Source: Escherichia phage P-GXEC-L2P5. Taken from it: a stretch of DNA of 64,000 nt. A model generated the notes under the pieces. The model saw nothing but the letters and a program-made list of their open reading frames with translations, did not search any database and had not been told where the DNA came from. The stretch is taken from the sequence record PQ843332.1; one strand, given 5' to 3'. Made by a program: the position numbers and the translations under genes. The first letter of the stretch is position 1, and every line of letters begins with the position of its first letter. Shown in pieces: positions 4,898-54,881 of the stretch.

Positions 4898-4899
4898 TC

Positions 4900-6248: not shown

Positions 6249-6321
6249 CGATTATCTACGACGTCACAGGCCATAAAGGCGGCGGCGGCAAAGCCGGAAT
6301 CGTAACCGAGGACTTGAACGA

Positions 6322-9300
6322 ATGACGATTATCTACGACGTCACAGGCCATAAAGGCGGCGGCGGCAAACAGCACACCCCACAGGAGACGCCGGACAGCC
6401 TGCATTCGCTGGCTAAAATCCGCATCTTGCTCGCACTGGGCGAAGGTGAGTTCGAAGGCATTACCGACCCTAACGAATTACGGCAGCGCGTATACCTGGA
6501 CGGAACACCGATCCAGAACGCCGACCTGTCAGAAAACTTCCCCGGCGCGCGCGTGGAGTTCCGCCCAGGCACACAGCACCAGGACGTGATCCACGGATTT
6601 TCAGCGGTGGAAAGTGAGCAATCCGTAGGCGTAAAACTGGAAAACGGCACGCCGTGGGTGCGCCAGATTAACGACACCAGTCTTGACGCCGTGCGCATTC
6701 GAATCGGCATTCCGGCCCTGTACACCAACGAAGACAACGGCGACCTGGTGGGCGGGCGCATCGACTACAAAATCGTTGTGTATACGGACAACGCTGATCC
6801 GCGTGAGTTTACCTTCGCTGCCGTTGGTAAAACAATGTCGCTGTACGAGCGCGACCACCGCATCGAGTTACCGCCGAACGTGAATACCGGCTGGCGCGTG
6901 GAAGTTCACCGCACAACGGCAGATTCCACATCGGCGAAAGTGGTGAACGATATTCAGGTACAGTCCATCACTGAGATTATTGACGCCCGCCTGCGTTACC
7001 CGCTAACCGCGCTGTTGTTTGTGGAGTTCGACGCCAAAGCGTTCCAGAACATCCCGCGCGTGTCCATTAAGTGCAAAGGTCGCAAAGTTCTAATACCGAA
7101 CAACTACGACCCGATCAATCATACCTATGCCGGGTACTGGGACGGCACGTTTAAACGCGCATGGACGGATAACCCTGCGTGGCACTGGTACGATATTTGT
7201 ATTACTGAGCGCTTCGGCCTCGGTCGGTTAAACGCGCATGGACGGATAACCCTGCGTGGCACTGGTATGATATTTGTATTACTGAGCGCTTCGGCCTCGG
7301 TCGCCGGATCAAGCCGCAAATGCTAAACAGATATGCGCTCTACCAGATTGCGAAGCGCTGCGATCAACTGGTCAGCGACGGCAACGGCGGGCAGGAAATC
7401 CGATTTAAGAATGATATGTACATCCAGTCGCAGACCGACGCCTGGACCGTGCTTAAGGATTTAGCCGCCATCTTTGCCGGTATGACCTGGTGGGGCAACC
7501 AGATGTTGAATATTGTAAGCGATCAGCCGGTCGCAGCGGTATCGCACACTATCACCAACGCCTCGGTCATTGATGGTCGATTCGACTACGCGTCAGGGAG
7601 CCAGAAAACTCGGTATTCCACGTTCGCTGTAGCATACGGCAACCCGAAGAACCACTATGAAGATGCCATTGCTACGGGACAGCGTGTCGAACTGGTACGC
7701 CGCCATAAGATTAACCGTCTGGATATAACGGCGATCGGCTGTACGCGTGAGTCAGAAGCGCAACGCCGCGGGCACTGGGCGCTAATCTCCAACCAGCTTG
7801 ACCAGCAAGTTAGCTTTAAGGTTGGCATGGAGGGACTTTTCTTTATTCCGGGTAGTGTAGTCGCGATCGCCGATACAAACATTTCTGGCGGCTTCGAGAC
7901 ACGCGGCGGTCGCCTGTTGTCAGATCCTGGCACGCGGACTGTGCTGAACACAGACAGCGAAATCACGTTCCGCCCTGGGGATAAATTCCTGGTACGCACC
8001 GATAGCGGTAATGTGGAGACTCGCGAGATTGCCAGCGTCAACGGCAACAAGGTTACGCTAAAAACCGCACTGGACGCCGACCCGATTCCTGATCAGCCGT
8101 TTTGCGTCGATGGCAACGATATCCAGTTGCAGAAGTTCCGCATCACCGACCTGGAATATGACGACTCTACCAGCACTTTTTCAGTGCGCGGGATCGAATA
8201 CAACGATAGCAAATATGATGCCGTTGATAATGGCGCTCGCCTTGACCCAGGCATCTTTACGCAAGTTCCTGACGGCGTAATGAAGGGGCCGGAGTCCGTG
8301 ACCATTACCCCGTCGCAGATTTCATCGCAAGGCCAGCTAATCACCAACGTGGATATTGTGTTCCCGCCGGTGAAGGATGCCGTTGTTTATGAGATCCAGT
8401 GGCGACGTACCAGCTTGCAGAATATGGCGGTACAGTGGGGAAACGACTGGGTAAACATCCCCCGCACGGCATCGAACGGCGCGCACATCCCTAACGTGTT
8501 CTCCGGTAACTACCAAGCGCGCGTCCGCGCGATCGGTATGGGCGAGATTTCATCCCCGTGGGTGTCGTCCGCTATCACGCCGGTGGAAGGTCGTCTCGGC
8601 GGTCTTAACGCGCCTATCATCACCAACGCGATTTCGGGCCTTCACCAAATTTTGTGGAAGTGGAACCACAACAACGCCGCGACGGATATTTCGTACACCG
8701 AGCTTGAAGTTCGCAAGACGGGTGAAACGGAATGGAAATTCCTAACCAACGTCCCATACCCGGGGTCGGAGTATGCGCAAACGTCGCTGGAGTTCGGCAT
8801 CTATCAGCAGTTGCGCGCCCGTGTAGCGGATAAAATCGGCAACCTGTCGGACTGGTCGGCCCCGTTTGAAGGGCAGGTGAGCAGCAGTTGCGCGCCCGTG
8901 TCGCGGATAAAATCGGCAACCTGTCGGACTGGTCGGCCCCGTTTGAAGGGCAGGTGAGTGACAATGTTGACGAGTACATGAAGGGGCTGGACGACGAGTT
9001 CTTGACTTCTGAGGACGGTAAACGCTTCCAGGAAGCGATCGACACCATGCCGCAAGGCATTTATGAGGCTATGCTCACCGACGCACAGCAATTGTTTAAC
9101 GCCCGCGCCGAGTACAAGGGGATTTATGCAGAAATCTCGGTCGCGTATAACGTGGCGGCAGATGCCCACCAGGCGGTAGCGCAACTGGAAACGTTGATCG
9201 GTACTCGCCTTGACGATGCGGAAGCGGCAATCCACACGTTGCAGACCGCGCAAAGCACGCACGAGCAAGCGTTCGCCCAGTACCAACAAACTGTTGCCGC

Positions 9301-9826
9301 TAAGTTCGGTCAGCAGTCCGCCGCGATCGAGCAGAAGATGACGTCCTCGTTTAACCACTCCGGTGGTAGCGCCACATACAGCCTTAAGGCGGGTGTGACG
9401 TATAACGGTACTTACTATGATGCGGGTATGCAGCTTTCCGTTGTAACGTCGGGCAGCGCGGTTAAATCTCGTATCGCGTTCAAAGCCGACCAGTTCTACA
9501 TCATGCACCCATCTAATGGGTCGCTTTCGTCCGCGTTCATCGTCGACGGAGGACAGGTGTACATCGACACGGCACGAATCAAGAACGCGTCCATTAACTT
9601 CGCACAGATCACGGACACGCTGCGGTCTAATAACTTCGTTGCGGGGTCGTCAGGGTGGAACCTGCCTAAATCGGGTAACGCGGAATTGAACAACGTAACG
9701 GTCCGCGGCAACCTGTACGCCACATCGGGTAACTTCGGGTTTTCTGGTGGGACCGTGACGATCGACAAGACAGGCGTAAACGTGCCGTTACCTGGCGGGG
9801 GGAGGGTGAAAGTCGGGACGTGGTAA
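6322..9826 (+). CDS. host specificity / tail tip protein, lambda gpJ-like (frame broken by duplications near 7151-7304 and 8806-8959; start codon duplicated at 6245 and 6322)
   Basis: ORFs 6322-7326, 7320-8957 and 8888-9826 are contiguous, about 1,100 aa after removing duplicates; conserved gpJ-like N-terminus MTIIYDVTGHKGGGGKQHTP; position after gpI-like gene. Confidence 0.8.
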
Positions 9827-9831
9827 ATGCG

Positions 9832-9853
9832 AAGGGGCCATCCGGCCCCTTTT
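9832..9853 (+). terminator. rho-independent terminator (aaggggccatccggcccctttt), usable on both strands
   Basis: GC stem, short loop, T-run; sits between convergent genes. Confidence 0.6.
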
Positions 9854-10818
9854 CAATACATATTCGGGATGACGAGTAGCGGGGTGGGTACGGCAATATT
9901 TTTACCTGGCATCTGGAATTGCTGCCGTGAGTAGTTGCCGATGACGCGGTTTTTAGCGACGCGCACATTATTACCCGCCATGCGTATTCCGTTCATGCGG
10001 ACGTGGTTATAGCCCCCGTTGTTCTGAATCAGCGCGCCGGTGTATGAAAGCTGGATCAGGCTGTTTCCTATATTCTGGTCGCCCGTGCCGATGTTAATCG
10101 TGCGGTCATATACGAACGGCTTGTTCACCGTCGAGAACGTGACCTGATTCTGGTTATTTGTCATAGTGATCCCGGCCCCTGGCGTGGGTGGTGTATTGTT
10201 GAATATGACAAGGTCCATGTCCACCGAAGCCGCCACATCGTCGATGCCACCATAGGCCGCGTTGCGGACGATAATACTGCCACCATCGAAGCCTACTGAT
10301 ACGTTGCCGTCATCCCAGCGGGCGAACGGGACACCGCTAACGGGCAAGGCCATACTACCGTTGACGCGTACTCGCTGTGCGTATCGGCAGGTCATTAGCT
10401 TAGACACGTTGGATATGGCGGTGAAGTCCGTCGAGTTCTCCACCAGTAAGCCCGCGTTGCGTGAACCAACCGGCAGCACTTCCATTATGACGCCAGCCCA
10501 TTGTGGTAAGCCAGAGTACGCGCCATACGCATCCTCCCCGCGCAGGGTGATACCACTATTCCCGTTGCGGGTAACAGACGTAACGTAAAACGGGTCGGGA
10601 ATTACCAGGGTCTGGTCGAATACCTCAATCACTTCTACCGGGCGAGTGAGCGCGACGACGACCTGCGACCCCTCCGTAAGCGGGGTGTTAATGGTTAGCG
10701 TCTTGTTGGACTGTGCCCGCTGGTTAAAGCTGGTGCAGTATGCTGGCGCGCGAAGCCCTGCGGTGATCTCCATGCGCGGTCTTCCGTCGTTGTAGTCGAT
10801 AAGTATTCCAGCACCCAT
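9853..10818 (-). CDS. hypothetical protein, Asn/Gly-rich with beta-helix-like repeats; co-transcribed with upstream lipoprotein
   Basis: Intact 324 aa ORF; start overlaps lipoprotein stop; repeated N-x-x-(V/I)-x-N segments; absent from second genome copy. Confidence 0.45.
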   Translation of the reverse strand: MGAGILIDYNDGRPRMEITAGLRAPAYCTSFNQRAQSNKTLTINTPLTEGSQVVVALTRPVEVIEVFDQTLVIPDPFYVTSVTRNGNSGITLRGEDAYGAYSGLPQWAGVIMEVLPVGSRNAGLLVENSTDFTAISNVSKLMTCRYAQRVRVNGSMALPVSGVPFARWDDGNVSVGFDGGSIIVRNAAYGGIDDVAASVDMDLVIFNNTPPTPGAGITMTNNQNQVTFSTVNKPFVYDRTINIGTGDQNIGNSLIQLSYTGALIQNNGGYNHVRMNGIRMAGNNVRVAKNRVIGNYSRQQFQMPGKNIAVPTPLLVIPNMY

Positions 10819-10820
10819 TA

Positions 10821-11042
10821 TTACCACTCCCGTGATTTAACTGATACTGTGCCTGAGAAATTGCCGTCGCTATCTGAAGACAGCCCAGTGAATCGCATGT
10901 CCACATCTCCTGCCGGGACTTTTTGCCCATCAACGTAGCGCAACATGCAGCTACCGTACGCAACCGTAATGCACTCGCCGTTGTTGCGTTCTACGGCGCA
11001 ACCGGATAAAAGAACCGCACAAATCATAATTAAAGTTTTCAT
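10821..11042 (-). CDS. small lipoprotein, candidate Llp/Cor-like superinfection exclusion protein
   Basis: Signal peptide MKTLIMICAVLLSGC with lipobox LSGC; AGGGGA RBS; lies between gpJ-like gene and tail fibre; mature part differs completely from paralogue at 61449-61667. Confidence 0.5.
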   Translation of the reverse strand: MKTLIMICAVLLSGCAVERNNGECITVAYGSCMLRYVDGQKVPAGDVDMRFTGLSSDSDGNFSGTVSVKSREW

Positions 11043-11122
11043 GGTATCATCCCCTATATTTGGTTGAGTTTTAGTATTACACCGCTCAACCAGGATTGCA
11101 ACCAATTTAAGAGGATTTAGCT

Positions 11123-12901
11123 ATGGCAGCGGGTACGCTATCCGTAACGAACAATAGCAAGGCTGTAGTAGGGGTCGGCACAACGTTTACCGCGTTTAAA
11201 GCGGGCGACTTCTTAACGCTGGTGGTAGGACAAGTCCCATACACCGTGGCAATCGCGTCCATTGAAAGCGCAACCGCGCTCACGCTGGTACTGCCGTTCG
11301 ACGGCCCAACGGCAACCGGCCTTGCGTGGGATGGCGTTAAGCGCGATACCATGTCGCTGGCAACGATGGGCGTTACCGTACAGGCCCAAAAAGCATTGCG
11401 CTTGATGATTGCAGATGAAAACAACTGGCGTGCAATCTTCGGCGATGCTGAAGAAATCACAGTCACGCTCCCGAACGGGCAAGTTATGCAGGGTATGTCG
11501 TGGGGCTACCTGTCGTCTTTGCTGAAGGAAGTAGACCCCGTTGAGATGCGCAACCTGCAACAACAAGCCGCCGCATCGGAAGCAGCCGCGCAAGGATTCC
11601 GTAACGAGGCGGAAGGCTTCAAGAACGACGCCAACACCATCAAGACGCAGACCAGCCAACTTAAGGCAGATACGCAGGCTATCAAGGACCAAACGAATCA
11701 GATCAAGACTGACACTGGCGTTATTCGTGATGAAGCCAATACCGCGAAGGAGGACGCGCAATCTGCCCGCACTGCCGCGCAAGGATTTCGCAATGAGGCT
11801 GAACAATTCGCTAATAGTGTTAACCCGGAAAACCTACTTGCGAAGGCCAACAACTTAAGTGATGTTGCGGATGTGGCTGTGGCGCGCGAAAACATTGGCG
11901 TAGACCGCCTAACGCAAAACATAACCAGCGGCGAAACACAAATCAGGACTGCGGCGAAGAATAAATGGATCTTCGTTAAGGAAAATGGCGACTGGGGCGG
12001 GTGGGATAATGCCAACAATAAAGCCATGCCGCTGCCGATTGCATTCGGTGGTACGGGGCGCGGCGATAACGTCGCCGAGTTCCGCCAATTCAAATCAAAC
12101 GGCGACACCCAAGATGGGTTAATCATTACGCAGAACGGGTCTGGATTTGGTGGTGTATGCTGGGGGGATTCCGCCAATAAAGTACGCTGGCGCATGGGGA
12201 TTAACGACGCCGCGGGTAATTTTAAGTTGCACTCATATGACGCGTCGGGCGCGTACCGCGATACCTTTATGGAGATCTCTGGATCGGGGATAAGCGGCAT
12301 GGTGTGTCATCGAGATATCATGGTCCGCCCAACAGAGACAGTTCCAGTGTTGTCTTTCGTCCTAAACAACGGAAAAGCTACCGTCCCGGCTGGTAACGTC
12401 CGCACGATGTGGGATACGGTTAACATCAATAGTAATATAATCTATAAATATTTTGAGAAGGGAGACGGCACTGGCTTCACAGTCAACTGGCCCTCATCTG
12501 GTGGTGTTATTGCCCTCCAGGGTACATCAGGAAGGGACTTTAAGAAAGATATTACCGACGCGGACGTTACAGAAGCGGTTGCACGCATTGAACAAATGCG
12601 CATGGTGCGCTACGTGTATAAGGACGATGTGCAGGAGCGCGTCCGCTTCGGCATCATTGCCGAGGAAGCAGAAGAGATTGCGCCTCAATACATCAAACAC
12701 CGTGAGGAGACGTACGATGTGGAGGTGGACCCCGAGACTAACGCCATCGTCGGGGGTAAGACGCGCGACCGTCCGTCGGTAGACGTTAACCCTATCGTGA
12801 TGGACTTGATGGGGTGCGCACAATATGCGATCGCTGAGTGTAAACGCCTGGCGGCGGAAGTGGAGGATTTGAAAGCCGAGATCGCGGCGTTGAAGAAATA
12901 A
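11123..12901 (+). CDS. tail fibre protein with C-terminal intramolecular chaperone (peptidase S74-like) domain
   Basis: Intact 592 aa ORF; coiled repeat region; C-terminal ...RFGIIAEEAEEIAPQYIK...DLKAEIAALKK resembles the auto-cleaving chaperone domain of endosialidase and L-shaped tail fibres. Confidence 0.7.
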   Translation: MAAGTLSVTNNSKAVVGVGTTFTAFKAGDFLTLVVGQVPYTVAIASIESATALTLVLPFDGPTATGLAWDGVKRDTMSLATMGVTVQAQKALRLMIADENNWRAIFGDAEEITVTLPNGQVMQGMSWGYLSSLLKEVDPVEMRNLQQQAAASEAAAQGFRNEAEGFKNDANTIKTQTSQLKADTQAIKDQTNQIKTDTGVIRDEANTAKEDAQSARTAAQGFRNEAEQFANSVNPENLLAKANNLSDVADVAVARENIGVDRLTQNITSGETQIRTAAKNKWIFVKENGDWGGWDNANNKAMPLPIAFGGTGRGDNVAEFRQFKSNGDTQDGLIITQNGSGFGGVCWGDSANKVRWRMGINDAAGNFKLHSYDASGAYRDTFMEISGSGISGMVCHRDIMVRPTETVPVLSFVLNNGKATVPAGNVRTMWDTVNINSNIIYKYFEKGDGTGFTVNWPSSGGVIALQGTSGRDFKKDITDADVTEAVARIEQMRMVRYVYKDDVQERVRFGIIAEEAEEIAPQYIKHREETYDVEVDPETNAIVGGKTRDRPSVDVNPIVMDLMGCAQYAIAECKRLAAEVEDLKAEIAALKK

Positions 12902-12905
12902 ATAG

Positions 12906-12930
12906 AAGGGGCCATGCGGCCCCTTTTTTA
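12906..12930 (+). terminator. rho-independent terminator (aaggggccatgcggcccctttttta), bidirectional
   Basis: Perfect GC stem plus T-run between convergent genes. Confidence 0.65.
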
Positions 12931-13580
12931 GTTTGAGTTTTCCCAGTCCATTTTGCGCCGCACCAGATGGCTTTCGTAATATTCCTTGCCCTCAACTTCC
13001 ACTAAGGGCCAATCGTTAACAATCACGTACGGTTCCGCAATATCCTCAATCACGCCGTGCGCGCTTTGCGGCCCTAACGACACGCCCACCAGGATAACAC
13101 CGGCAACACGACGGGCAAGATACTCACGAGCGCAGCGCGCCTCTACCAGTCCGCGACGGATGCCGCTGGTGGCCTTAACTTCGTAGGTCCATACGGCATC
13201 GATCACATGCTCGCGGAAGTCGGGACCGGACTTCACCTTGCGCTTGCCGACCATGATGATATCGCCGCGACGGCATCGATCACATGCTCGCGGAAGTCGG
13301 GACCGGACTTCACCTTGCGCTTGCCGACCATGATGATATCGCCGCGGTCAATGGTATTGGCGCTAAACAGGCCGGTACGCATGAGCAAGCCTTGAGGAAT
13401 ACAACTGCGCCCTCCTGCCTGCCCTTCAAGATACATGCCTGCAAACATCTCGCCCAGCACACCGACCAGTCGGCTTTGCTTGCACGCGTCAGACTTTAAG
13501 CGCCACTGGTCAAACTCGATGCTTGCTATCATTGCCGCCAGGTGGAATTGTTTACCGGATATTTCATATTCGCCGTACAT
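12928..13580 (-). CDS. hypothetical protein, possible PD-(D/E)xK-type nuclease fold (frame broken by duplication near 13195-13345)
   Basis: ORFs 13233-13580 and 12928-13254 are contiguous; GDII...YEVK resembles D...(E)xK; homologue at 63627-64000. Confidence 0.3.
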
Positions 13581-13622
13581 CGTGTGGTCCTCATTGATGC
13601 GGGCCGAAGCCCTCGATTAGAA

Positions 13623-14297
13623 TTATTTCAGTGCGCCAGTCACCAGTGTTTTTTCCATGTTGCGGAAATCTTCCGGCGTCATGAGGATTTTCGATCCGTC
13701 CTCGCCAGTGAGCACGACCATAGGCTGGACGTCCTGATCTGCGATGCCAAAATTAGCGGCTTTAACAGTCTTGCCCACAGATGAAGAAGGATGCCGCGTC
13801 CCGGCGGAGGCGATGGGCCGGCCTTTGAGGCTGTCGAATTGTGCTGCCGTTGTATCGATCTGAATCTCGTCATGTACGGTCATGTAAGACTCGCCCAGCA
13901 GGGCGGCATACCGAATTGTGCTGCCGTTGTATCGATCTGAATCTCGTCATGTACGGTCATGTAAGACTCGCCCAGCAGGGCGGCATACGCCACCAGATCC
14001 ACGATGTTATCTTCCTGGTGCTTACGGTGCTGGCGCACCAGCTTCAGGCAGATCAGGAAGGTCCAGGCTTCTTGCTCTGTAAGTTATCTTCCTGGTGCTT
14101 ACGGTGCTGGCGCACCAGCTTCAGGCAGATCAGGAAGGTCCAGGCTTCTTGCTCGGACAGGTCGCGACCGGTAATCGCGTTAAACACGGCCGCGATTTGT
14201 TTAGCGCTGCGTTCTTCTTTCGCGTTGTCATAGCCGTTTTCTTTCCCGCGCTGTTCCATAGTGGTGGCGGCGTTTTTGCAGTATTCGTATGCTTTCA
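13623..14297 (-). CDS. hypothetical protein (frame broken by duplications near 13835-13985 and 14005-14158)
   Basis: Removing the duplicated units joins ORFs 14053-14340 and 13623-13883 into one ~175 aa frame; GTG start with AAGGG RBS near 14297. Confidence 0.35.
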
Positions 14298-14348
14298 CAG
14301 TATTACCCTTTTTAGTGAAGGGGCGGTATTGCCCCGACACGTTTACTA

Positions 14349-17604: not shown

Positions 17605-19329
17605 TCATTTGCGCGCCTTTTTAGCTTTCATGTATTCCATCAAGTCGTCCTGTATATCTCGCTTACTGTCGCGACGCTCGGCGACCAGTTCGTCTAGTGT
17701 TCCGCGCGCCTGGATAATGTAGACGAATACCGGTCGAGGGTGTCCGGCCTGCATCTGGCGAACCGGCCCGATACGTTCAACGATCTGCGAAAAGTGCTCA
17801 AAGTTCCAGGTATCGGAGAAGATTGCCAGGTGATGACCGCCGTCCTGCAAGTTAAGGCCGTGGCCCGCCGATGCCGGGTGTGCAAACATGATGGGGATCT
17901 CGCCCCTGTTCCACGCTTCCATATCCTTATTGCCCTGCTTACCCTTACCCAACGCGACGCCGTGCGGAAATTTCTTCTTAAGACGTGCCAGGTCATGCTT
18001 ATACTGATACGCAACGAGCAACGGCGCGCCGTTCAACTCCTCCACGATACTTTCCAGTGCGTCCAGCTTCGCGTCGTGAATCTTCACCCACTCGTCGGTC
18101 CGTTCGCCGTCTTCGTCCACCTTATACACAGCGCCGGAAGCAAGCTGAAGGCACTTAATTGTCTTCGATGCCGCGTTCGCCGCTTCCACTGTTCCGCTTT
18201 CCAGTTCGGCAAATAGCTCGCTTTCAAACTGGTCGTAAATCTTGCGGGCTTTCTTCGGCAGGTCCACAACAACCGGCGTATAGATTGGCTTGTCGCACCC
18301 GAAGTATTCAGCCGCGTCAACGGTGAGGGATACATCTGACAGACGTTGTTGTATCTCTTTCTCGGAGTTCTTTAGCGGAGCGTGCTGCATAGTGAAGCTG
18401 CCAGGCTTAACAGGCTTGCTAATGAACCAGCGGTCGGTGAATGCCTTATAGCTACTACCGAGGCGTTCACCACCGTCGACGAACCACGTCTGACCCCATA
18501 AGTCTTTCAAGCCGTTTGGTGCGGGTGTGCCGGTCAAGTTAATCCAGCGCTTGACGTGCTTATGTGCAATCGCCGCCAGTGCGCGTGCGCGCTTACTGCC
18601 CTGCTTGCTTCGATAGCCTTTCAGCTTAGTCGATTCATCGGCAACAACGACCGTAAAGGGCCACGCATCGCCGTAATAGTCGACCAGCCACTCAACCACA
18701 TCGTAGTTAACACAAACCACGTTAGCGTCGCTCTCAAGCGCCGCAATACGGTCCTTCTCCGGCCCGGTGCCGTCTACAACCAGCAGGGATGAGAACCGCC
18801 ATTTCTCCTGCTCCGGGGGCCATGTACCTGACGCAACACGCAGCGGGGCCAGCACCAGTACGCGGTCCTCATGATGGGACAGGACGCCAGTCTGGAACAT
18901 TTTATTCAGCGCCCACATTGTCGCGCCGGTTTTACCCGATCCCATTGTCGCCCAGATATTACATCGCTTATGCTTGAGGATGAACGCGGTTATCAACTTC
19001 TGATATTCGCGGCGTCGGAATCGTGCCATATCTTTATTCCGCCTTTTTCCAGACTTCGGTTTCACTGTTCCAGTTCCTTTTTGTAGCGTCGTAGTTGGTG
19101 GCGTGTCCGATGTGGACGCCTTTTTCCAGACTTCGGTTTCACTGTTCCAGTTCCTTTTTGTGGCGTCGTAGTTGGTGGCGTGTCCGATGTGGACACCAGT
19201 AGCCCGGAAGCTCTTAAATTTTTGCCAGCACACCGTCAACGGCAGCGGGTCATTCATGCCAGCAATAAACCACACGCGATCGCCCGGTTTGCATTCGCCC
19301 AGCTTGGTGAGTCGGTAATGTTCTTTCAT
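17605..19329 (-). CDS. superfamily 2 DNA helicase (DEAD/DEAH-like N domain + helicase C domain); N-terminal region carries duplication near 19070-19160
   Basis: Walker A ATMGSGKTGA, DEST box (VVADESTKL), helicase C motifs (HPASAGHGLNLQ); start choice from GGGAGA RBS. Confidence 0.75.
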   Translation of the reverse strand: MKEHYRLTKLGECKPGDRVWFIAGMNDPLPLTVCWQKFKSFRATGVHIGHATNYDATKRNWNSETEVWKKASTSDTPPTTTLQKGTGTVKPKSGKRRNKDMARFRRREYQKLITAFILKHKRCNIWATMGSGKTGATMWALNKMFQTGVLSHHEDRVLVLAPLRVASGTWPPEQEKWRFSSLLVVDGTGPEKDRIAALESDANVVCVNYDVVEWLVDYYGDAWPFTVVVADESTKLKGYRSKQGSKRARALAAIAHKHVKRWINLTGTPAPNGLKDLWGQTWFVDGGERLGSSYKAFTDRWFISKPVKPGSFTMQHAPLKNSEKEIQQRLSDVSLTVDAAEYFGCDKPIYTPVVVDLPKKARKIYDQFESELFAELESGTVEAANAASKTIKCLQLASGAVYKVDEDGERTDEWVKIHDAKLDALESIVEELNGAPLLVAYQYKHDLARLKKKFPHGVALGKGKQGNKDMEAWNRGEIPIMFAHPASAGHGLNLQDGGHHLAIFSDTWNFEHFSQIVERIGPVRQMQAGHPRPVFVYIIQARGTLDELVAERRDSKRDIQDDLMEYMKAKKARK

Positions 19330-19355
19330 CGTCATGTCTCCCAAAAATGGCGGGA

Positions 19356-19372
19356 CAAGCCCGCCGTATTAA
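19356..19372 (-). terminator. hairpin ggcgggacaagcccgcc followed by T-run on minus strand (duplicated at 19425-19441)
   Basis: Perfect 6-bp GC stem; lies just upstream of helicase RBS. Confidence 0.35.
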
Positions 19373-19449
19373 TTATTTTTGCTCTGCGCCGGTAATGTTC
19401 TTTCATCGTCATGTCTCCCAAAAATGGCGGGACAAGCCCGCCGTATTAA

Positions 19450-19623
19450 TTATTTTTGTTCTGCACGGTAGCGGCGCTGCCGTTCGCGCTCTTTCTTATT
19501 GCGGCACGATTTGCACTCTGCCCGATACCCGTCTGGACTGCGCGCAGTCTTACCGGTGTATTTGTGGAACTGGGATAGCGGCTTTACACAGCCGCAATTA
19601 CTACAACGTTTTTCTTCAATCAT
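19450..19623 (-). CDS. small zinc-ribbon protein (CxxC...CxxC), hypothetical
   Basis: MIEEKRCSNCG...ECKSCRNKKERERQRR; GAGGA RBS before ATG 19623. Confidence 0.4.
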   Translation of the reverse strand: MIEEKRCSNCGCVKPLSQFHKYTGKTARSPDGYRAECKSCRNKKERERQRRYRAEQK

Positions 19624-19663: not shown

Positions 19664-19942
19664 CTATGCGACCAATTCAGCAACCAATAAATCGCAGTCG
19701 GATATGTTGTCGATAACGCGAACGTCAGCACCGCGGCGGGCCATTCGCTCATGTTCACGTACCTGGTGCGGCTTCGGTTTTCCTCCGGGGCGCTTCACTT
19801 CGACGAACACTATTTTGCCGTTGATGATAATAATCAGGTCGGGCGCACCCGCGCGCCCCTCCCATGCCAGTTTTCGGCAGAAGCCGCCAACCTCTTTCAC
19901 CCGTCGCATCAGGTGGCTTTGAATCTTGCCTTCTGGTGTCAT
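19664..19942 (-). CDS. VRR-NUC domain nuclease
   Basis: GAPDLIIIINGKIVFVEVKRPGGKPKPHQ matches VRR-NUC signature (PD...E-V-K). Confidence 0.6.
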   Translation of the reverse strand: MTPEGKIQSHLMRRVKEVGGFCRKLAWEGRAGAPDLIIIINGKIVFVEVKRPGGKPKPHQVREHERMARRGADVRVIDNISDCDLLVAELVA

Positions 19943-20541
19943 TGTCGGCTTTTCCTTACGGCCGCGATGGCCGGTCCGATAAACTTCTTCATTTCGTCCG
20001 GGGTAAACCGGTCCCCGCGGGCTATGTTGCACTCTACGCAGCACGGCACGCAGTTATCTTTCGTATGGCCTACTGCGTTGTCGAGTCGGTCCGCGCCATT
20101 GTCGCCGGTGAATCCGCAGTATGCGCATGGTTGAGAAGTAAGGCGTAGCACGTCCTCGGTGGTTAGGTCGGTGGTTAGCCCCTTCCTTTCGTCCGCCTTA
20201 CGGTACTGAAAGAGCTTATAGTAAGCTCGGATCTCTGGTGTCCGGTGGTTGTACTCACGGCGGGACTTATTAGAGCACGACCTGCATTCTTTACGAATGT
20301 GTGACTGGCTTGCCCGGTTTCCGGGCCGGAAGTTTTCCGGCGTAAGCGGCTTGCGTTCCCCGCACTGACGGCACGTTACGATCTCCCCGGTATACTCTCG
20401 CCATACTTCGCGCGGCGGCGCTCCTCTTTCCTTATCACGTCTCTCTTTCTTATACGCCGCCATGCATTTGGCACACCACGACTGACCCTTGTTGAAAGCG
20501 GACTCATCTTTATCCGTATTACAACGCCCACAATGTTTCAT
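19939..20541 (-). CDS. HNH endonuclease with N-terminal zinc-ribbon repeats
   Basis: Repeated CxxC pairs; C-terminal CAYCG...DRLDN...H...CCVECN resembles HNH core; ATGA overlap with VRR-NUC gene. Confidence 0.5.
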   Translation of the reverse strand: MKHCGRCNTDKDESAFNKGQSWCAKCMAAYKKERRDKERGAPPREVWREYTGEIVTCRQCGERKPLTPENFRPGNRASQSHIRKECRSCSNKSRREYNHRTPEIRAYYKLFQYRKADERKGLTTDLTTEDVLRLTSQPCAYCGFTGDNGADRLDNAVGHTKDNCVPCCVECNIARGDRFTPDEMKKFIGPAIAAVRKSRQ

Positions 20542-20607
20542 ATACCCCCCGAAAAAGAAAACGCCAGACAATATTGCCTGACGTTTCCGCTAAAAGCAAC
20601 ATTTCCG

Positions 20608-23600
20608 CTACTTGCGGTATCGATACATACAATCGCCCTCTGCGGCAAGTGGGAAGCCTTTCGCCCAAATCGGCAGGTCGCACATCAGCGCGCAAAGTTC
20701 CTCGGTCGTGTAGTCGTCAGTGTCCGGCACTTCGGTGATCAATTCATCGTGCACTGACAGGACGATTTCATAGCCCGCAGCTTCAACGCCAGGCATGGAC
20801 CACGCGAGAATATCGCGACACAACGCTTGCACGATGTTCTCCGTAAGTTTGCCGCCGTAGGTGTACTGGAATCCCCACTGGCGCGTCGTCTGATTCTCGC
20901 CCTGATATTTGATGCGGGTACTGGTGCGCTTCTTGCCGGTGTCTTCGTCGATCTCGGTCGTGACAGACAGTGCGATGCCGGGGTAGCTCATGATGCGCCC
21001 CGACGGCAACTCAATTTTTAACCACCACCCCGCGGCGTTCGGGTCGTCGCGCTCCTCGTCAAAGGTTGGGTCGTGCTTCGCCTTCGTACGGACAATCTTG
21101 AGCGCTTTTCTACCGTCCGGGCGAACGTTCGCACCAGCCCAGTATGCTTTGCCCGGATTGCGGATTGCACACAACACCGCGTCCTCAAGCTCGGCCCAAA
21201 AGGCTACCGTCTTCGGGTGAGCCTCACGCCACATACGTTTGATCGCGTCACAAGTAAGCCATACGTTTTTCGGCAGTATGTAAGTCGGGCGCTCGTCCTT
21301 CTTGCCCGGCTTCGGTGGGCGTTTCGCTTCGTTAATGCGGGCGTACTCATAACCGCGCTTCGCCGCCGCCCAAATGTGATCCGGGAACGTGCCTTTCATC
21401 ACGTCCGCCATAGTGTAAAGGTCGAGTCCCAGGTTTTTAGCGAACTGCAAGAACGCCGCGACGCCGCCACCATAGCCCAGGCCAAGCTCGCAGTTATGCG
21501 CCACCAGAAAACCAGACTTAGACGCAATAAGGAACCGGTTTCCGTCTTCCACATCAATCAGGTCGTAAACCGGCTCGCAATAGGTTAACTTCCCGTTCCA
21601 GTTCAGCAATGCGGGTAAGGGCTTCATCGTACTTTCTCTGAAGCTCGGGCACGCTGCGCCGGTTACGGCAGTTTTCCGAACGGCTGACAAACCGAAGGTT
21701 TCCAGGCTCATAGTTGCCGTCTGTATCGATCCGGTCCATTTCGAAGTCGGGATTATCCCAGCCGTCCAGCGTTTGAACGTAGAGAAGAAACGACCTTTTA
21801 TCTCTCTTCCATTCGTCACATACGGCAATCCCACGACTGCCGTAGTTTTTATACCCTTTGGCGCGGGGGTTTGTCGTTCGTGATATTGCCGCTGACAGCC
21901 GGTTGAGCAGCCGCGTTCTGTGCGCATCGTCTGGCATTGCGTCATCGTAGCAAAAATACTGTTTACGATACCGCTTTGTCGCTTCAATTGCGCAGAGGTT
22001 GCATTGGGATGTTTTACCCCTTCGGACGTTGTCATACCCGACGCGTCCTGGCATCGCTCCGCAATCACATTGGGCCAGCAGTTGTCTGTGCCCCTGTCGT
22101 TTTGGTAATTCGCGCAGGATAACCAGGCGTCCATACCTCTCGCCAGGGCGCGGGCCATCGTGCACCTGTCTGAAACGAGTTGCCTTGCCTCCTTCCATGA
22201 ATGCGTCAAGATTTTGTGGTCTTCTGTCATCAAGACCCCGTCCACGTCTATCACTGGTTTCCACCCCATAAGGTGCGCGCCTTGTGTACTCACCCATTTT
22301 TCGCCGTTCCATACTTTATCCGTTGATGTTACGGCCATAATATCCTTGAACCCGCCATTGGTCAATACTTGGGTATGGCGGTGCAAGCAAGCCTTACCGA
22401 TCTGGCGTAAGTCCTTGCGGTTAGCTTTAATGTAATCCGGGTCCAGGCCGAACATTTTACCGGCAGTCTCGCAATAAATATCGCGACCGGCCTTAAACAC
22501 CATTAACGCGGTTTTCTCGCCAGCGACCCAGGCAAGGCCGCGCCCTTCCACGTTGGAGTAGTCCGCGACGACAAACTTCTTGCCCTTAGCCGGAATGATG
22601 CACCCGCGAACGGTCGAGGCGGTTAGCTTCGATATGTCATACGCCCAGTGCGCTGTCCCGCGTAACAGGGAGTTGATGCCGTTGGTGAGCATGTGCGACC
22701 GAACCCAAAACGAGACGTCGCTTTCACCCTCGCGGCGTTTAATCTTCCCTTCGTGGTCGTCGCTGTACTCGCCACGCGCCAGGTTTTGAGGTTGAAAGCC
22801 TTTACCGGCCCAGCGTAGCGTGCGCTTTGCCCCACCATACTGAAGACACCCACGGCGGCGACCATCTGCGGATAAGCCGTTAACTAGCGGATTGTACTTA
22901 GTCGATGCCGTTGATGACGCTCCGAGGCGCATTTCTATAAGCGCTTTGCCTTCGTCGGGGAAGTCCGGGTCTTCAAGCAGGTCGTTAAGTGTGGATTTCT
23001 GCGCGTTGTGGATTGTGAACGCCGGGGCGATATCACGCAGGATTGGCAGGAAGTCATTGCCTGTCAGTTTACCACCAAATCGCTCCCAGGCTTCTTCCTT
23101 CAATTCTTCCTTATGCGCCTGCACCGCTTTGATCGCGGCGTTCGCCAGGTCAACGTCGACGTAGAAGCCGCGGTCGTTAATCAACTGGTCGATGAGCAGG
23201 ATTTCATCTTCCTTAGGCGAGTTTCCCCAGTCCGGTATGCGCCAGTAGACTTCACGCATTGCGATAATATCCAGCGCGGCATAGCGCAGAAATTTGGCCC
23301 ATTCTTCCGGGTGAGTCTCGCGAGTGTAGCGGCGGATTTTGTAGGTCTTAGGGGTAGGCTTACAGAATCGGTTAATCAGCGCCTTGCCTGCCTTATCCTT
23401 CGCGTGCTCTGCGTCAACGCCCAGAACCTGGCACTGCATATCGAGGCTACCGGGCAGCGCGTGGCGAAAGGCCATAATCATAGTGTCTTCGATCTGGCTT
23501 ACCGGCAGGTCAATACCCCACTTCTCGCGGATAACCAGGCGGTCAAACAGGAGGCCGTTAGCCATCACTATTTTAGCCTTCTTGCGGGATACCCGGCGGA

Positions 23601-23796
23601 GCGCCTTGCGCAGTTCACGCGGCATTGTGGGGGATTCAGTGGCATCCCATGTCTGCACGCGGCCCTCGTCTATGGCGTAGGTGCAAATCATAATCTCTGT
23701 GGTTGGGTGCTCCGCGTAGGCGTACGCCCCAACTTTCTTCAGGTCCACCCCGCTAAATGTCTCGGTGTCGAGAAACAGGCGTTCGAAGTCTTTCAT
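20608..23796 (-). CDS. family A DNA polymerase with 3'-5' exonuclease domain, interrupted by an in-frame intein
   Basis: Intact 1062 aa ORF; exo motif FLDTETFSG; motif A VVADYSNVEGRG; motif B split as RQIGKA/intein/CELGLGYGG; motif C VHDEL. Confidence 0.85.
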   Translation of the reverse strand: MKDFERLFLDTETFSGVDLKKVGAYAYAEHPTTEIMICTYAIDEGRVQTWDATESPTMPRELRKALRRVSRKKAKIVMANGLLFDRLVIREKWGIDLPVSQIEDTMIMAFRHALPGSLDMQCQVLGVDAEHAKDKAGKALINRFCKPTPKTYKIRRYTRETHPEEWAKFLRYAALDIIAMREVYWRIPDWGNSPKEDEILLIDQLINDRGFYVDVDLANAAIKAVQAHKEELKEEAWERFGGKLTGNDFLPILRDIAPAFTIHNAQKSTLNDLLEDPDFPDEGKALIEMRLGASSTASTKYNPLVNGLSADGRRRGCLQYGGAKRTLRWAGKGFQPQNLARGEYSDDHEGKIKRREGESDVSFWVRSHMLTNGINSLLRGTAHWAYDISKLTASTVRGCIIPAKGKKFVVADYSNVEGRGLAWVAGEKTALMVFKAGRDIYCETAGKMFGLDPDYIKANRKDLRQIGKACLHRHTQVLTNGGFKDIMAVTSTDKVWNGEKWVSTQGAHLMGWKPVIDVDGVLMTEDHKILTHSWKEARQLVSDRCTMARALARGMDAWLSCANYQNDRGTDNCWPNVIAERCQDASGMTTSEGVKHPNATSAQLKRQSGIVNSIFATMTQCQTMRTERGCSTGCQRQYHERQTPAPKGIKTTAVVGLPYVTNGREIKGRFFSTFKRWTAGIIPTSKWTGSIQTATMSLETFGLSAVRKTAVTGAACPSFRESTMKPLPALLNWNGKLTYCEPVYDLIDVEDGNRFLIASKSGFLVAHNCELGLGYGGGVAAFLQFAKNLGLDLYTMADVMKGTFPDHIWAAAKRGYEYARINEAKRPPKPGKKDERPTYILPKNVWLTCDAIKRMWREAHPKTVAFWAELEDAVLCAIRNPGKAYWAGANVRPDGRKALKIVRTKAKHDPTFDEERDDPNAAGWWLKIELPSGRIMSYPGIALSVTTEIDEDTGKKRTSTRIKYQGENQTTRQWGFQYTYGGKLTENIVQALCRDILAWSMPGVEAAGYEIVLSVHDELITEVPDTDDYTTEELCALMCDLPIWAKGFPLAAEGDCMYRYRK
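21493..22389 (-). mobile_element. intein (299 codons) inserted in polymerase motif B
   Basis: Block A CLHRHTQVLTNGG, block B DGVLMTEDHKILT, block F/G VYDLIDVEDGNRFLIASKSGFLVAHN followed by +1 Cys; removal restores RQIGKACELGLGYGG. Confidence 0.7.
21554..22198 (-). CDS. HNH homing endonuclease encoded in an alternate frame inside the intein
   Basis: ORF 21554-22312 in a different frame from the polymerase; GERYGRLVIL...QCDCG...GKTSQCNLC and GYKNYGSRGIAVCDEW...DRIDTDGNYEPGNLRFVSRSENCRNRR match the common phage HNH family; ATG at 22198. Confidence 0.6.
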   Translation of the reverse strand: MEGGKATRFRQVHDGPRPGERYGRLVILRELPKRQGHRQLLAQCDCGAMPGRVGYDNVRRGKTSQCNLCAIEATKRYRKQYFCYDDAMPDDAHRTRLLNRLSAAISRTTNPRAKGYKNYGSRGIAVCDEWKRDKRSFLLYVQTLDGWDNPDFEMDRIDTDGNYEPGNLRFVSRSENCRNRRSVPELQRKYDEALTRIAELEREVNLLRAGLRPD

Positions 23797-23963: not shown

Positions 23964-23978
23964 TTTTCATTGTCCTGT

Positions 23979-24002
23979 TAAAAAGCCCGCATTAAGCGGG
24001 CT
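23979..24002 (-). terminator. rho-independent terminator on minus strand (aagcccgc-ttaat-gcgggctt + ttttta); the unit is triplicated to about 24215
   Basis: Perfect 8-bp stem seen directly; T-run on minus strand. Confidence 0.55.
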
Positions 24003-24175
24003 TGAATAGTGGGCTTTGCCCTTAACGGCGGCGACGGTTACGTGGTGCTTCGTCTTAAAAAGCCCGCATTAAGCGGGCTTGAATAGTGGGCTTTGCCCTT
24101 AACGGCGGCGACGTTTACGTGGTGCTTCGTCTTCGTCGTCGTCCATTAAGCGGGCTTGAATAGTGGGCTTTGCCC

Positions 24176-24850
24176 TTAACGGCGGCGACGTTTACGTGGC
24201 GCTTCGTCTTCGTCGTCGTCTTCGTCATCGTCATCACGACGTTTTGACTTTTTGGACTTACGCGGGCTTTCATCTTCGTCATCGTCGCCCAGGTCTTCGT
24301 CGGAACATGAAGACCCGCCACCGCCGAAGGCTTCGCCGTCATCACGGAAGCGCATACCCAGCAGACCACAGCCTAAGCCTTTGCCGTTGGTATTGTTCCA
24401 GGCCCAAATATCTAAGGAAACGTTGCAATAGCAACCGGAATAGATTTCCTTCCCTTCGATTTCGTCGCCGTCGATGGTCAGACCCTGCTCCGTCTGCTTC
24501 TCGCCTTCGGAAGTCTGGATGATCGGCTGTTTGAACGATTTGGCGTTGATGTACAACATGCCTTCGAATTCTTCGGTTACTTCGTCGCGCTCGTCACCGT
24601 CGCGAACTGCGCATTCCTTAGAATCCTGGGCGTAGTGGCGGTCCATCCACTTATCGGCATTCTTCTCGGATTTCAGCTTGTCGGTGAGCACTGCGCGCGC
24701 TGCCGCTTCCACTTTGTCCACCTGCGGATCTTCTTTATCAAGAAGAATCACGGCGCGGTATGCCGGTTTTTGTCCATCCTGTTTAGGGGTATCACGTTCC
24801 CAAATTTTAAGGAAACATACACGCACATTTTTCAGGTTGACTTTAGCCAT
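24176..24850 (-). CDS. single-stranded DNA-binding protein candidate, DUF2815-like with acidic C-terminal tail
   Basis: MAKVNLKNVRVCFLKIWE...IYSGCYCNVSLDIWAWN...GKGLGCGLLGMRFRDDGEAFGG followed by D/E-rich tail; GAGGAA RBS; C-terminus affected by the triplicated unit. Confidence 0.5.
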   Translation of the reverse strand: MAKVNLKNVRVCFLKIWERDTPKQDGQKPAYRAVILLDKEDPQVDKVEAAARAVLTDKLKSEKNADKWMDRHYAQDSKECAVRDGDERDEVTEEFEGMLYINAKSFKQPIIQTSEGEKQTEQGLTIDGDEIEGKEIYSGCYCNVSLDIWAWNNTNGKGLGCGLLGMRFRDDGEAFGGGGSSCSDEDLGDDDEDESPRKSKKSKRRDDDDEDDDEDEAPRKRRRR

Positions 24851-25017
24851 TTTCCAATTCCTCATTTTCACATGTATCGGGGTTATTGGAAGCCACCCCG
24901 TTCGGCTTGGTTGCTAATTTACTCCATTTTCCAATTCCTCATTTTCACATGTATCGGGGTTATTGGAAGCCACCCCGTTCGGCTTGGTTGCTAATTTACT
25001 TGGTTGCGCCTGAGCGG

Positions 25018-54879: not shown

Positions 54880-54881
54880 CC

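Follow-up and report, generated by a model that had tools for sequence, protein, structure and literature searches.

The family A DNA polymerase gene of Escherichia phage P-GXEC-L2P5 probably contains a composite mobile element, in which a class 1 intein is accompanied by a homing nuclease encoded as a separate gene, overprinted on the intein in the +2 frame of the same strand. The window analysed here is a stretch of 64,000 nucleotides from record PQ843332.1. In the scheme that we favour, ribosomes reading the polymerase frame would synthesize a precursor of 1062 aa, whose two Hint halves would fold around a probably disordered linker of ~175 residues; the intein would be excised and RQIGKA would be ligated to CELGLGYGG, giving an active polymerase of 763 aa. 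Other ribosomes would initiate internally at ATG 22297 and produce a 247-aa HNH nuclease of the free-standing type. In a mixed infection this nuclease would cut or nick empty polymerase alleles near the junction of GCG and TGCGAATTGGGA, and repair off the occupied allele would copy the whole element together with a few flanking bases. Occupied alleles would be spared, it is proposed, because their site is split and bears synonymous changes. The features on which this scheme is built are as follows.

20608..23796, minus strand: family A DNA polymerase precursor gene, 1062 codons and a stop, 3189 nt (N-extein 469 aa, intein 299 aa, C-extein 294 aa)
22390..23796, minus strand: N-extein, whose C-terminal end ...RQIGKA is the first half of motif B; collinear with 2292-nt intein-free genes
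21493..22389, minus strand: predicted class 1 intein, 299 codons, 897 nt, with Cys1 ... His298-Asn299 and then Cys+1
22120..22389, minus strand: N-terminal splicing region, blocks A and B; C1, T6, W27, G29, T55, H58 and W65 invariant
21595..22119, minus strand: centre of the intein frame; a 'linker', open but without conservation, in which the +2-frame nuclease gene sets the sequence
21493..21594, minus strand: C-terminal splicing region, blocks F and G, VYDLIDVEDGNRFLI...GFLVAHN; D276, G293, H298 and N299 invariant
21554..22297, minus strand: nested nuclease gene in the +2 frame, 247 codons and TGA, MGEYTRR...LRPD, of an HNH-annotated family
22295..22317, minus strand: proposed translation-initiation region, with ATG 22297-22295 after a TGG-AAC-GGC (W-N-G) tract
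21481..21492, minus strand: C-extein side of the putative homing site, TGCGAGCTTGGC in occupied alleles and TG(C/T)GA(A/G)TTGGG(A/G) in empty ones, all differences being synonymous

The intein and its empty-site relatives

The precursor matches Pfam DNA_pol_A (E=3e-13) and the DNA polymerase family PHROG 17 (E=6e-123), and over the whole of its length its gene shares 98.7% identity with gp38 of Sodalis phage SO-1. Translation of the minus strand from 21493 to 22389 gives CLHRHTQVLTNGG...DGVLMTEDHKILT...VYDLIDVEDGNRFLIASKSGFLVAHN, lying between ...RQIGKA and CELGLGYGG..., which reproduces exactly the peptide and the boundaries proposed in the initial annotation. The location in motif B of a family A polymerase is likewise borne out, as is the form of the motif reconstructed by joining the exteins. 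The insert, which splits motif B, is a multiple of three in length and is in frame with the polymerase; its boundary is settled except for a 3-nt TGC repeat (Cys1 or Cys+1). All the catalytic residues that had been named are present in the window, namely C1, T55-x-x-H58, H298-N299 and C+1. The host gene is a single 1062-codon ORF rather than two ORFs each bearing half an intein, as a fractured gene would be. It may reasonably be supposed that polymerase activity requires the predicted splicing.

Empty versions of the same site are available for comparison. A megablast search of phage genomes found the full 3189-nt gene in eight records, representing six distinct phages including that of the window; of the 311 further records that matched, most align in two pieces over ~72% of the query, as if they were without the 897 nt. 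Seven empty-site records were inspected and in each of them exactly 897 nt are absent, the sequence over the junction being QIGKACELGLGYGGG. These seven alleles, reading QIGKACELGLGYGG, are the uninterrupted orthologues by which an intein is recognized. Intein-free family A polymerases thus exist at this locus, and the insert does not appear in them as ordinary protein sequence. Occupancy is sporadic: six Dhillon-type phages have the insert as against ~150 records at 90-95% identity, for most of which, among those listed, only 72% of the gene is covered.

There is good evidence that the ends of the insert are those of an intein. Cys1, the TxxH of block B and the terminal His-Asn occur in all 69 distinct family members, and the +1 residue is Cys in 66 of them and Ser in three; conservation of the splicing residues across the 69 members is far beyond chance. 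When the family profile was compared with PDB sequences all matches were to inteins, the best being PI-MtuI (E=2.4e-4). Using hhalign, with three mini-intein sequences as references, columns 1-91 of the N-domain gave a probability of 94.5% (E=8e-8) and an end-to-end alignment, with the centre removed, gave 96.2%; blocks F and G align with the known mini-inteins once the centre is taken out. Weak matches to TIGR01445 (20/41) and to the Vint Hint domain (9/41) were seen among 41 members. The window intein alone matches no Hint model in Pfam (E<=0.1) and nothing in NCBIfam, and a single-sequence AlphaFold model of it (pLDDT 34) is uninformative on the Hint fold. The Hint similarity predicted for the insert is therefore found at the level of the family profile, whereas the window sequence by itself passes no curated model. 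In the intein frame this similarity is confined to the first ~90 and the last ~35 residues. We infer that the insert undergoes autocatalytic protein splicing, because its catalytic residues are intact, it lies in an essential motif and its carriers are viable lytic isolates.

A predicted nuclease gene in the second frame

The initial annotation described the intein as canonical, and this description has to be given up: there is no homing-endonuclease domain in frame, the centre belongs to no detectable family, and the nuclease homology is in the +2 frame. The central ~175 codons of the intein frame gave no Pfam match, no match to a PHROG of assigned function and no profile match. The +2-frame ORF takes up 744 of the 897 nt of the insert, starting at intein nt 93 and stopping 61 nt short of the intein end; this second gene was overlooked in the initial annotation. 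Its matches to PHROGs 374 (E=2.7e-47), 3377 (E=1e-22) and 2081 (E=4e-22) are all to families labelled 'HNH endonuclease', and there is a weak one (7.6e-5) to PHROG 1035, 'endonuclease VII'; a Pfam scan of the +2-frame protein returned no HNH model at E<=0.1. Homologs number 460, covering up to 98% of the ORF, and many phages carry distant relatives annotated as HNH endonucleases. The family alignment has 40 invariant columns, at every one of which the window carries the invariant residue; the position of the canonical HNH histidine is occupied by Arg. Over its core (residues ~52-215) the protein can be aligned with free-standing genes annotated as HNH in other phages, and its N- and C-terminal extensions are found only in the intein-embedded form. 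A structure model is confident over residues 56-250, and the first ~50 residues are of low conservation and predicted disorder. The ORF is intact in all six close copies and in ~150 Jersey-like phages (80-83% identity), and the family extends to at least 279 viral contigs and ~150 cultured Salmonella phages. On the strength of these similarities the nested ORF is a predicted HNH-type homing nuclease gene. A search for homologs of the intein-frame protein gave only five matches, likely because gene callers take the nuclease frame and shorten the polymerase, as at three of the loci collected (L009, L010 and L012).

The two frames divide the constraint between them. In the N-terminal splicing region pairwise identity is ~0.5 in the intein frame as against ~0.3 in the overlapping nuclease frame; in the centre it is 0.15-0.38 in the intein frame and mostly 0.42-0.73 in the nuclease frame; and in the C-terminal splicing region it returns to 0.56-0.61 in the intein frame. 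Constraint thus shifts from the intein frame at the ends to the nuclease frame in the centre. This family-wide conservation profile was used in place of a codon-position analysis of the 19 substitutions that separate the six close copies, which affect both frames about equally and are too few to name the frame under selection. Neither frame is interrupted in any of the six close relatives, where the third frame has 24 stops. For the window, the probability that the host frame would be open given the nuclease protein is 0.004, and the +2 frame was open in none of 20,000 shuffles that preserved the intein protein. More widely, the host frame is open over the nuclease match at 84 of 86 loci and the third frame at none of the 86; the two exceptions are a locus at a contig end and a free-standing control (L015). 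Among 59 non-redundant elements of 45-65% GC, no host-frame stops were observed, compared with 5.95 expected per element. At two loci (L070 and L072) the nuclease frame is apparently broken and the host frame is intact. The nuclease lies in the +2 frame in each of the 69 distinct elements and in the +1 frame in three related inteins. A Hint domain and a nuclease of the free-standing type overlap in the DNA, and they are fused in none of the elements examined.

The ATG of the nuclease is formed from the third base of Lys31 and the TG of intein Trp32. A start codon at intein nt 93 is shared by 66 of the 69 elements (ATG in 53, GTG in 13), and the remaining three have an ATG two codons further downstream. 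Where the third base at the nuclease start is 4-fold degenerate, A is found 14 times and G once, but C and T not at all. Pairing with the anti-SD sequence near the start has a family median of -6.9 kcal/mol, which is the 5% quantile of background; in the window it is weak (-3.9 kcal/mol). Relatives do not retain the alternative in-frame ATG that lies 15 nt upstream, at 22312; they have a nuclease-frame stop 1-7 codons upstream of the start.

It is possible, though we would put it a little below an even chance, that the element is large, old and stably kept, and that the out-of-frame state is itself selected rather than being a rare transient step towards a fused intein. Part of the same tentative reading is that the invariant W-D/N-G-x-x-W-V residues of the intein might double as the ribosome-binding site and start codon of the nuclease. 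If this were true, selection might be for a nuclease dosage uncoupled from that of the polymerase, or against a fusion that impairs splicing; it would contrast with current models, in which the out-of-frame state is an accident preceding fusion.

Mobility and alternative explanations

The insert differs by 0.1-1.2% between phages and the polymerase flanks by up to 9.6%, so that the insert is ~10 times less diverged than its surroundings. The synonymous differences at the junction are fixed, in six of six occupied and seven of seven empty alleles, and at the final N-extein codon (22390-22392) occupied alleles have GCT where empty ones have GCG. Taken together, the fixed synonymous changes and the low divergence of the insert indicate that homing is probably active, as judged from the alleles compared.

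An unlikely alternative is that the nested nuclease is an inactive relic, the element being a mini-intein with a junk linker that is inherited vertically or moved by ordinary recombination. This would be in keeping with the weak ribosome-binding signal in the window, with the Arg at the canonical HNH histidine position and with the even spread of substitutions over both frames in the six copies, and the apparently broken nuclease frames at L070 and L072 indicate that decay does occur. Set against it are the persistence of the ORF in the six close copies and the ~150 Jersey-like phages, with all of the family-invariant residues present, and the pattern of low insert divergence and junction changes, which is difficult to account for unless homing has been recent. 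Another way to obtain the nuclease, and a very improbable one, would be programmed ribosomal frameshifting (-1, equivalent to +2), yielding a fusion of N-extein, N-terminal intein and nuclease. The nuclease frame is indeed -1 relative to the host frame, the first ~50 nuclease residues are poorly conserved and predicted to be disordered, and positions 22190-22239 give a very weak match to an Rfam frameshift element (13 bits against a 70-bit threshold). Such a mechanism does not account for the start codon, which 66 of 69 elements have at one position, with its biased synonymous base and SD-like tract, or for the stops that relatives have shortly before the start; in addition, a conserved slippery heptamer was not seen in the upstream sequences of family elements, and related inteins have a homologous nuclease in the +1 frame.

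The remaining alternatives concern the insert itself, and that which departs least from the initial annotation, a large canonical intein with an in-frame endonuclease domain and a +2 ORF open by chance, has a negligible probability. The frame is continuous and 299 aa is a typical size for endonuclease-containing inteins, but the in-frame centre is without a family and poorly conserved, whereas it is the +2 frame that has the strong PHROG match, the 460 homologs and the 40 invariant columns, and its openness was reproduced in none of the 20,000 shuffles. In RefSeq both gp38 and gp39 of SO-1 bear the remark 'type I self-splicing intron', and group I introns with HNH ORFs are known in phage polymerase genes (for example PMC3428280). 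An intron would have no need of a length divisible by three or of a host frame free of stops in 59 of 59 elements where ~6 each are expected, nor of intein catalytic residues that are invariant, in register with the exteins and accompanied by profile similarity to solved inteins. The Rfam group I intron model (Intron_gpI) had no match at E<=10 in window positions 21000-23000 on either strand, and on this and the reading-frame evidence the group I intron, which we regard as scarcely credible, was rejected. Just as doubtful is the view that the insert does not splice and that the polymerase tolerates it, in the manner of the ShiLan domain, which is described as also being open in frame with an out-of-frame HNH gene whose stop lies in the last bases, TAAC (PMC11855218). 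In several members of the present family the nuclease ORF stops 1 nt before the intein end, and the last codons of the window intein are CAT AAC. Yet here, unlike in ShiLan, there is a full set of Hint splicing blocks with conserved catalytic residues, and 299 extra residues in the nucleotide-binding motif B would be unlikely to be tolerated. The composite of an intein and an overprinted nuclease gene is thus the reading we retain.

Relation to known systems

The polymerase intein of Jersey-like Salmonella phages is the same 897-nt element at the same insertion point, between GKA and CELGLGY; its identity to the window is 83-86% over the N-terminal splicing region and 80-83% over the nested nuclease. 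In vB_SenS-Ent1 gp37 the homologous 897 nt are annotated as a mat_peptide, 'intein, encoding splicing domains', and 4FS1, S528 and S532 are annotated with an 'intein-containing DNA polymerase precursor'; Pubbukkers is the Dhillonvirus example. Those of these records that were inspected annotate the intein only, and none marks the +2-frame nuclease gene. SO-1 gp39 is 100% identical to the +2-frame ORF of the window from its upstream ATG, and its depositors took the arrangement for a group I intron, which is contradicted by the RNA-family scan and the frame evidence presented here. There is accordingly a systematic annotation problem: callers either take the nuclease frame, cutting the polymerase short, or mark the intein and miss the nuclease, and in SO-1 an intron is recorded.

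A 2026 preprint (bioRxiv 10.64898/2026.09.14.751524) is said to describe a cyanobacterial dnaX intein with an out-of-frame homing endonuclease, the same general idea to go by its title. In earlier literature on the Synechocystis dnaX case, the LAGLIDADG gene is described as antisense, so that it involves the other strand and another nuclease family. Out-of-frame endonucleases in inteins were first reported in preprints of 2025-26, on actinobacteriophages and cyanobacteria, and have been described as extremely rare. The elements of Gosselin et al. 2025, as described there, resemble that of the window in having a splicing domain in the extein frame, a nuclease in frame 3 (+2) of the same strand, an in-frame centre without a fold and signs of ongoing horizontal transfer. 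They differ in belonging to phages of Actinobacteria and to other exteins among those listed there. Their nuclease matches endonuclease VII (IPR004211) at residues 1-67, whereas the conserved motif of the window nuclease is C-terminal, a difference in domain order drawn from the published description. Their second ORF is typically outside the splicing domain, in contrast to that of the window, whose start lies within the N-terminal splicing region, 92 nt from its beginning, and many relatives of the window element have, unlike them, a nuclease ORF that stops 1 nt before the intein end. Where those cases are described as extremely rare, the present family occupies at least 279 viral contigs.

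The ShiLan domain (Arsenault et al., Genes 2025, PMC11855218), as reported, is a hidden HNH gene in an in-frame-open insertion in a mycobacteriophage methylase, similar in its start a few codons in, its stop at the very end and its homing-like distribution. It is reported there to lack a detectable splicing domain and thought to be retained, whereas the window nuclease is flanked by complete Hint blocks. In the fractured genes of Dassa et al. (NAR 2009, PMC2677866), a nuclease gene of the free-standing type occupies the place in an intein where an endonuclease would be inserted, as in the window, but the host gene there is in two ORFs joined by trans-splicing and here the host frame is continuous. 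A related family A polymerase intein, that of APSE, has a Hint domain 44% identical over 70 residues; its homologous nuclease ORF is also out of frame, but in +1, and its insertion site reads YGGKS, then C...HN, then CEN. The nested gene of the APSE intein receives no mention in the published passages on inteins and on APSE that were consulted.

What is new here is a large, experimentally tractable family of inteins with an out-of-frame endonuclease, the intein itself having already been annotated in relatives. The family bears on the central questions about such inteins, namely by what route the hidden nuclease is translated, whether homing is driven by it and whether an intein can splice around a near-arbitrary linker of ~175 residues. 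The carriers are easily grown phages infecting E. coli, Shigella and Salmonella, among which occupied and empty alleles occur naturally at 94-95% identity, and because of this crosses, initiation-site profiling and cleavage assays should be straightforward. Compared with the rare cases reported so far, this family indicates that the out-of-frame arrangement can be abundant and evolutionarily durable, and it offers a clean natural case of overlapping genes under spatially partitioned constraint.

The polymerase gene and its insert

The window comes from a Dhillonvirus-type phage, in which three overlapping features on the minus strand concern us.

20608-23796, minus strand: family A DNA polymerase gene (ORF list), 1062 codons
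21493-22389, minus strand: 897-nt in-frame insert in the polymerase gene
21554-22312, minus strand, +2 frame: second ORF (ORF list), encoding a nuclease

The initial annotation had placed at 21493-22389 an insert that splits the polymerase, and this is confirmed: translation of the minus strand reproduces the quoted 299-residue peptide together with its flanks, ...RQIGKA and CELGLGYGG.... In a megablast comparison with phage genomes, the polymerase gene of Sodalis phage SO-1 is 98.7% identical over its full length. The 3189-nt form of the gene occurs, among the matches, in six distinct phages only (the window, SO-1, EP23, Pubbukkers, AV129 and PS2); most of the other records, some 300 in number, give about 72% query coverage in two pieces, as expected without the 897 nt. 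All seven of the empty alleles inspected (polymerases without the insert) lack exactly these 897 nt, with a junction that reads QIGKACELGLGYGGG, so that these relatives do not carry the insert as ordinary protein sequence.

It should be noted that some 80 near-exact 77-nt tandem duplications (two copies each; for example 296-449, 19040-19194, 19313-19464, 23978-24210 and 24847-25000) occur every few hundred bases over the whole window, both in genes and between them. They look like overlaps (k=77) left untrimmed when the assembly was stitched and, because 77 is not a multiple of three, many ORFs of the window are broken by them. The window ends share exact 40-mers (about 1-14300 with about 49700-64000, at offsets of about 49.7-50.3 kb) and the closest relative has a 45.2-kb circular genome; the window probably wraps around a phage genome of about 45 kb that is inflated by the duplications. 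None of these lies inside the polymerase gene, the nearest being those at 19313-19464 and 23978-24210, and the gene is gap-free against SO-1; the findings on the intein and the nuclease are therefore unaffected.

An intein and a nuclease in two reading frames

The insert had been described as a canonical intein. It is a real intein, and one known before at annotation level, as judged from family-profile matches, catalytic residues and existing annotation; it is not canonical, in that the nuclease lies in the +2 frame instead. Searched alone, the window intein has no match in Pfam (E<=0.1) or in NCBIfam, and the expected Hint-domain similarity emerges at the level of the family profile. Amongst 41 diverse members aligned from related loci, 20 match TIGR01445 (intein N-terminal region) and nine match a Hint-domain model, in both cases weakly. 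The PDB sequences matched by the family profile are inteins only, and include Mtu RecA PI-MtuI (E=2.4e-4), the Nanoarchaeum split-polymerase intein NEQ068 and a DnaX mini-intein. In profile-profile comparison with three classical mini-inteins, the region from Cys1 through block B aligns with 94.5% probability (E=8e-8). After in-silico removal of the central columns, the 133 that are left align with the mini-inteins over their entire length, including VYDL and the terminal HN (96.2% probability, E=2.7e-9). The central 166 columns alone matched nothing in this comparison. Every one of the 69 distinct family members has Cys1, TxxH and the terminal His-Asn; the +1 residue is Cys in 66 and Ser in three. 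In Salmonella phage vB_SenS-Ent1, an existing intein mat_peptide annotation covers the homologous 897 nt, and several other records carry the annotation ‘intein-containing DNA polymerase precursor’. A single-sequence structure model of the window intein (pLDDT 34) was too low in confidence for use. We infer that the intein undergoes protein splicing.

The second ORF was missed in the initial annotation. Its product matches PHROG 374, ‘HNH endonuclease’ (E=2.7e-47), and several more HNH-annotated PHROGs, and SO-1 gp39 is 100% identical to it. The 460 homologs are mostly 236-250 aa in length, with coverage of up to 98% and identity of 45-50%, and the family alignment has 40 invariant columns. 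The alignment with distant relatives (annotated as HNH endonuclease or hypothetical; Staphylococcus, Enterococcus, Bacillus and other phages) is confined to nuclease residues ~52-215, and for this reason the N- and C-terminal extensions are specific to the intein-embedded form. A distant free-standing homolog (29% identity) is present in Klebsiella phage Soft (positions 2513-3043 of the fetched locus), where it directly follows a DNA polymerase I gene that is uninterrupted; a neighbour-targeting gene of this type could be the kind of source from which the intein-embedded form arose. In the window itself, a separate 210-aa ORF directly downstream of the polymerase (19939-20571, minus strand) corresponds to SO-1 gp37, a ‘putative HNH endonuclease’. 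The ORF is present in SO-1 and mckay and absent from EP23, Pubbukkers and PS2, and is probably a second, free-standing mobile nuclease gene.

In six close copies of the element, the polymerase frame has no stop in 299 codons, the +2 frame is open over a stretch of 253 codons, and the remaining frame has 24-25 stops. When synonymous codons of the window were redrawn with the nuclease protein fixed, the polymerase frame was open in 0.4% of trials (mean 4.4 stops); with the intein protein fixed, the nuclease frame was open in 0/20,000. The family census covered 80 viral-contig loci with nuclease relatives (279 exist) together with loci from metagenomes and isolates. Across the whole match, the frame shifted 1 nt downstream from that of the nuclease is open at 84 of 86 loci and the third frame at none; the two exceptions are a locus cut by a contig end (L091) and the Klebsiella phage Soft locus (L015), a deliberately distant free-standing control. 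In 59 non-redundant elements (GC 45-65%), no host-frame stops were observed against 5.95 expected per element, the third frame having a mean of ~17. At nearly all of the 84 loci, the host frame (that of polymerase and intein) encodes an intein C-terminus (...HN followed by C or S) and then polymerase motif B, the exceptions being L022, L070 and L072. The latter two are IMG/VR contigs in which the nuclease frame appears broken ~23 codons past the match start and the host frame is open over 965 codons; they may be decaying nuclease copies en route to mini-inteins.

The depositors of SO-1 described the insert as a ‘type I self-splicing intron’. An Rfam scan (E<=10) found no group I intron in 21000-23000, and the frame evidence is incompatible with that description. 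Gene callers and older annotations have called the nuclease frame and cut the polymerase in pieces at several loci (L009, L010/L011, L012, L016 and L029, the last being SS3e); the small yield of a protein search with the intein frame, five database entries only, probably has this cause. In SS3e there is a break in the polymerase frame itself, which might stem from a sequencing error in the old record.

Start, stop and shared DNA

Each of the 69 distinct elements has the nuclease in the +2 frame. In 66, a start codon begins at intein nt 93 (53 ATG, 13 GTG); the remaining three have an ATG two codons further downstream. The nt-93 start joins the last base of one codon to the TG of the next, which encodes an invariant Trp. 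Where the codon before this Trp is four-fold degenerate, its third base is A (14) or G (1) and never C or T; the nuclease start thus restricts the choice of base at a synonymous position of the intein. An SD-like tract provided by W-D/N-G codons (TGGGAYGG) precedes the start; anti-SD pairing has a family median of -6.9 kcal/mol, ranking at the 5% quantile among positions of the same genes, and is weak in the window (-3.9 kcal/mol, quantile 0.27). Because a stop in close relatives cuts off the window's upstream ATG (22312) from the nt-93 start, the conserved start is predicted to be window 22297, giving 247 codons that end at 21554.

Pairwise identities show a partition of conservation along the element. 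At intein nt 1-225 they are 0.35-0.51 in the intein frame and about 0.3 in the nuclease frame, at nt 271-765 they are 0.15-0.38 and 0.28-0.73 (most bins 0.42-0.73), respectively, and at nt 811-897 about 0.6 and 0.22. The AlphaFold model of the nuclease agrees with this partition, being of low confidence for residues 1-50, which overlap the N-terminal splicing region, and confident for ~56-250. Depending on lineage, the nuclease stop lies 61, 70, 46, 43, 31, 25, 22 or 1 nt from the intein end. In the 1-nt cases (e.g. L034, L044, L050 and L054), it overlaps the terminal His-Asn codons of the intein; if these were CAT AAC, as are the last two codons in the window, the stop would be TAA and the insert would end in TAAC.

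Signs of mobility, relatives and known systems

Amongst the six copies, the insert diverges pairwise by 0.1-1.2%, against 2.1-8.8% for the N-extein and 0-9.6% for the C-extein, with 19 variable sites in 897 nt of insert and 319 in 2292 nt of extein. Across the insertion boundary, GCT is followed by TGCGAGCTTGG(C/T) in 6/6 occupied alleles and GCG by TG(C/T)GA(A/G)TTGGG(A/G) in 7/7 empty ones, the differences all being synonymous; over the first 100 nt downstream, between-group divergence (7.5%) exceeds that within either group (about 4%). This pattern of divergence and junctions is what one would expect if homing was recent and its co-conversion tract short, if the target is immune to cleavage, or if both apply.

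In distinct elements of the census loci L017-L096, the intein/nuclease pair occupies three motif-B registers, with Cys1 one (n=23), two (n=1) or five (n=45) residues after the motif-B Lys, which suggests insertion-point shifts inside one target region. Three other phages carry more distantly related Hint inteins (36-44% identity). In APSE-2 (P45, 2501-3418 of L103) and Caulobacter phage RLK (L104), the site differs from that of the window (YGGK(S/L) before the first C, HN before CEN); in Streptococcus phage PhiSdyV1524 (2501-3427 of L105), GKIAELA precedes C. All three have a homologous out-of-frame nuclease, but its frame is +1 instead of +2; the BLASTP matches to the window nuclease have E=2e-13, 6e-18 and 3e-20. 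The APSE ORF also has a C-terminal helix-turn-helix signal. No in-frame nuclease fusion was found among the 80 of 279 viral contigs examined.

We consider it likely that the element is a class 1 intein onto which an HNH-type homing nuclease, translated separately, is overprinted in the +2 frame. It is a new example of the recently recognised out-of-frame-endonuclease inteins. Gosselin et al. 2025, writing on such inteins in Actinobacteria phages, propose that a free-standing nuclease gene invades an intein, and call such events extremely rare; the title of a September 2026 preprint refers to an out-of-frame endonuclease in a cyanobacterial dnaX intein; and Dassa et al. 2009 (PMC2677866) describe split inteins whose halves are separated by a free-standing nuclease gene. 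The ShiLan element is described by Arsenault et al. (PMC11855218) as an out-of-frame HNH insertion without splicing domains. Its reported ending, TAAC, is the one that the 1-nt-stop members of the present family would have if their last codons are CAT AAC, and elements of the ShiLan type might be relatives in which the splicing blocks are no longer recognisable. For the Dhillon, Jersey and APSE polymerase inteins, we found no literature description of a nested nuclease. Compared with the known out-of-frame-endonuclease inteins, the nuclease here appears to be of a different family, the overlap extends far into the splicing regions, conserved intein residues share their sequence with the start signal, and the clade is large and durable, in phages that can be cultivated.
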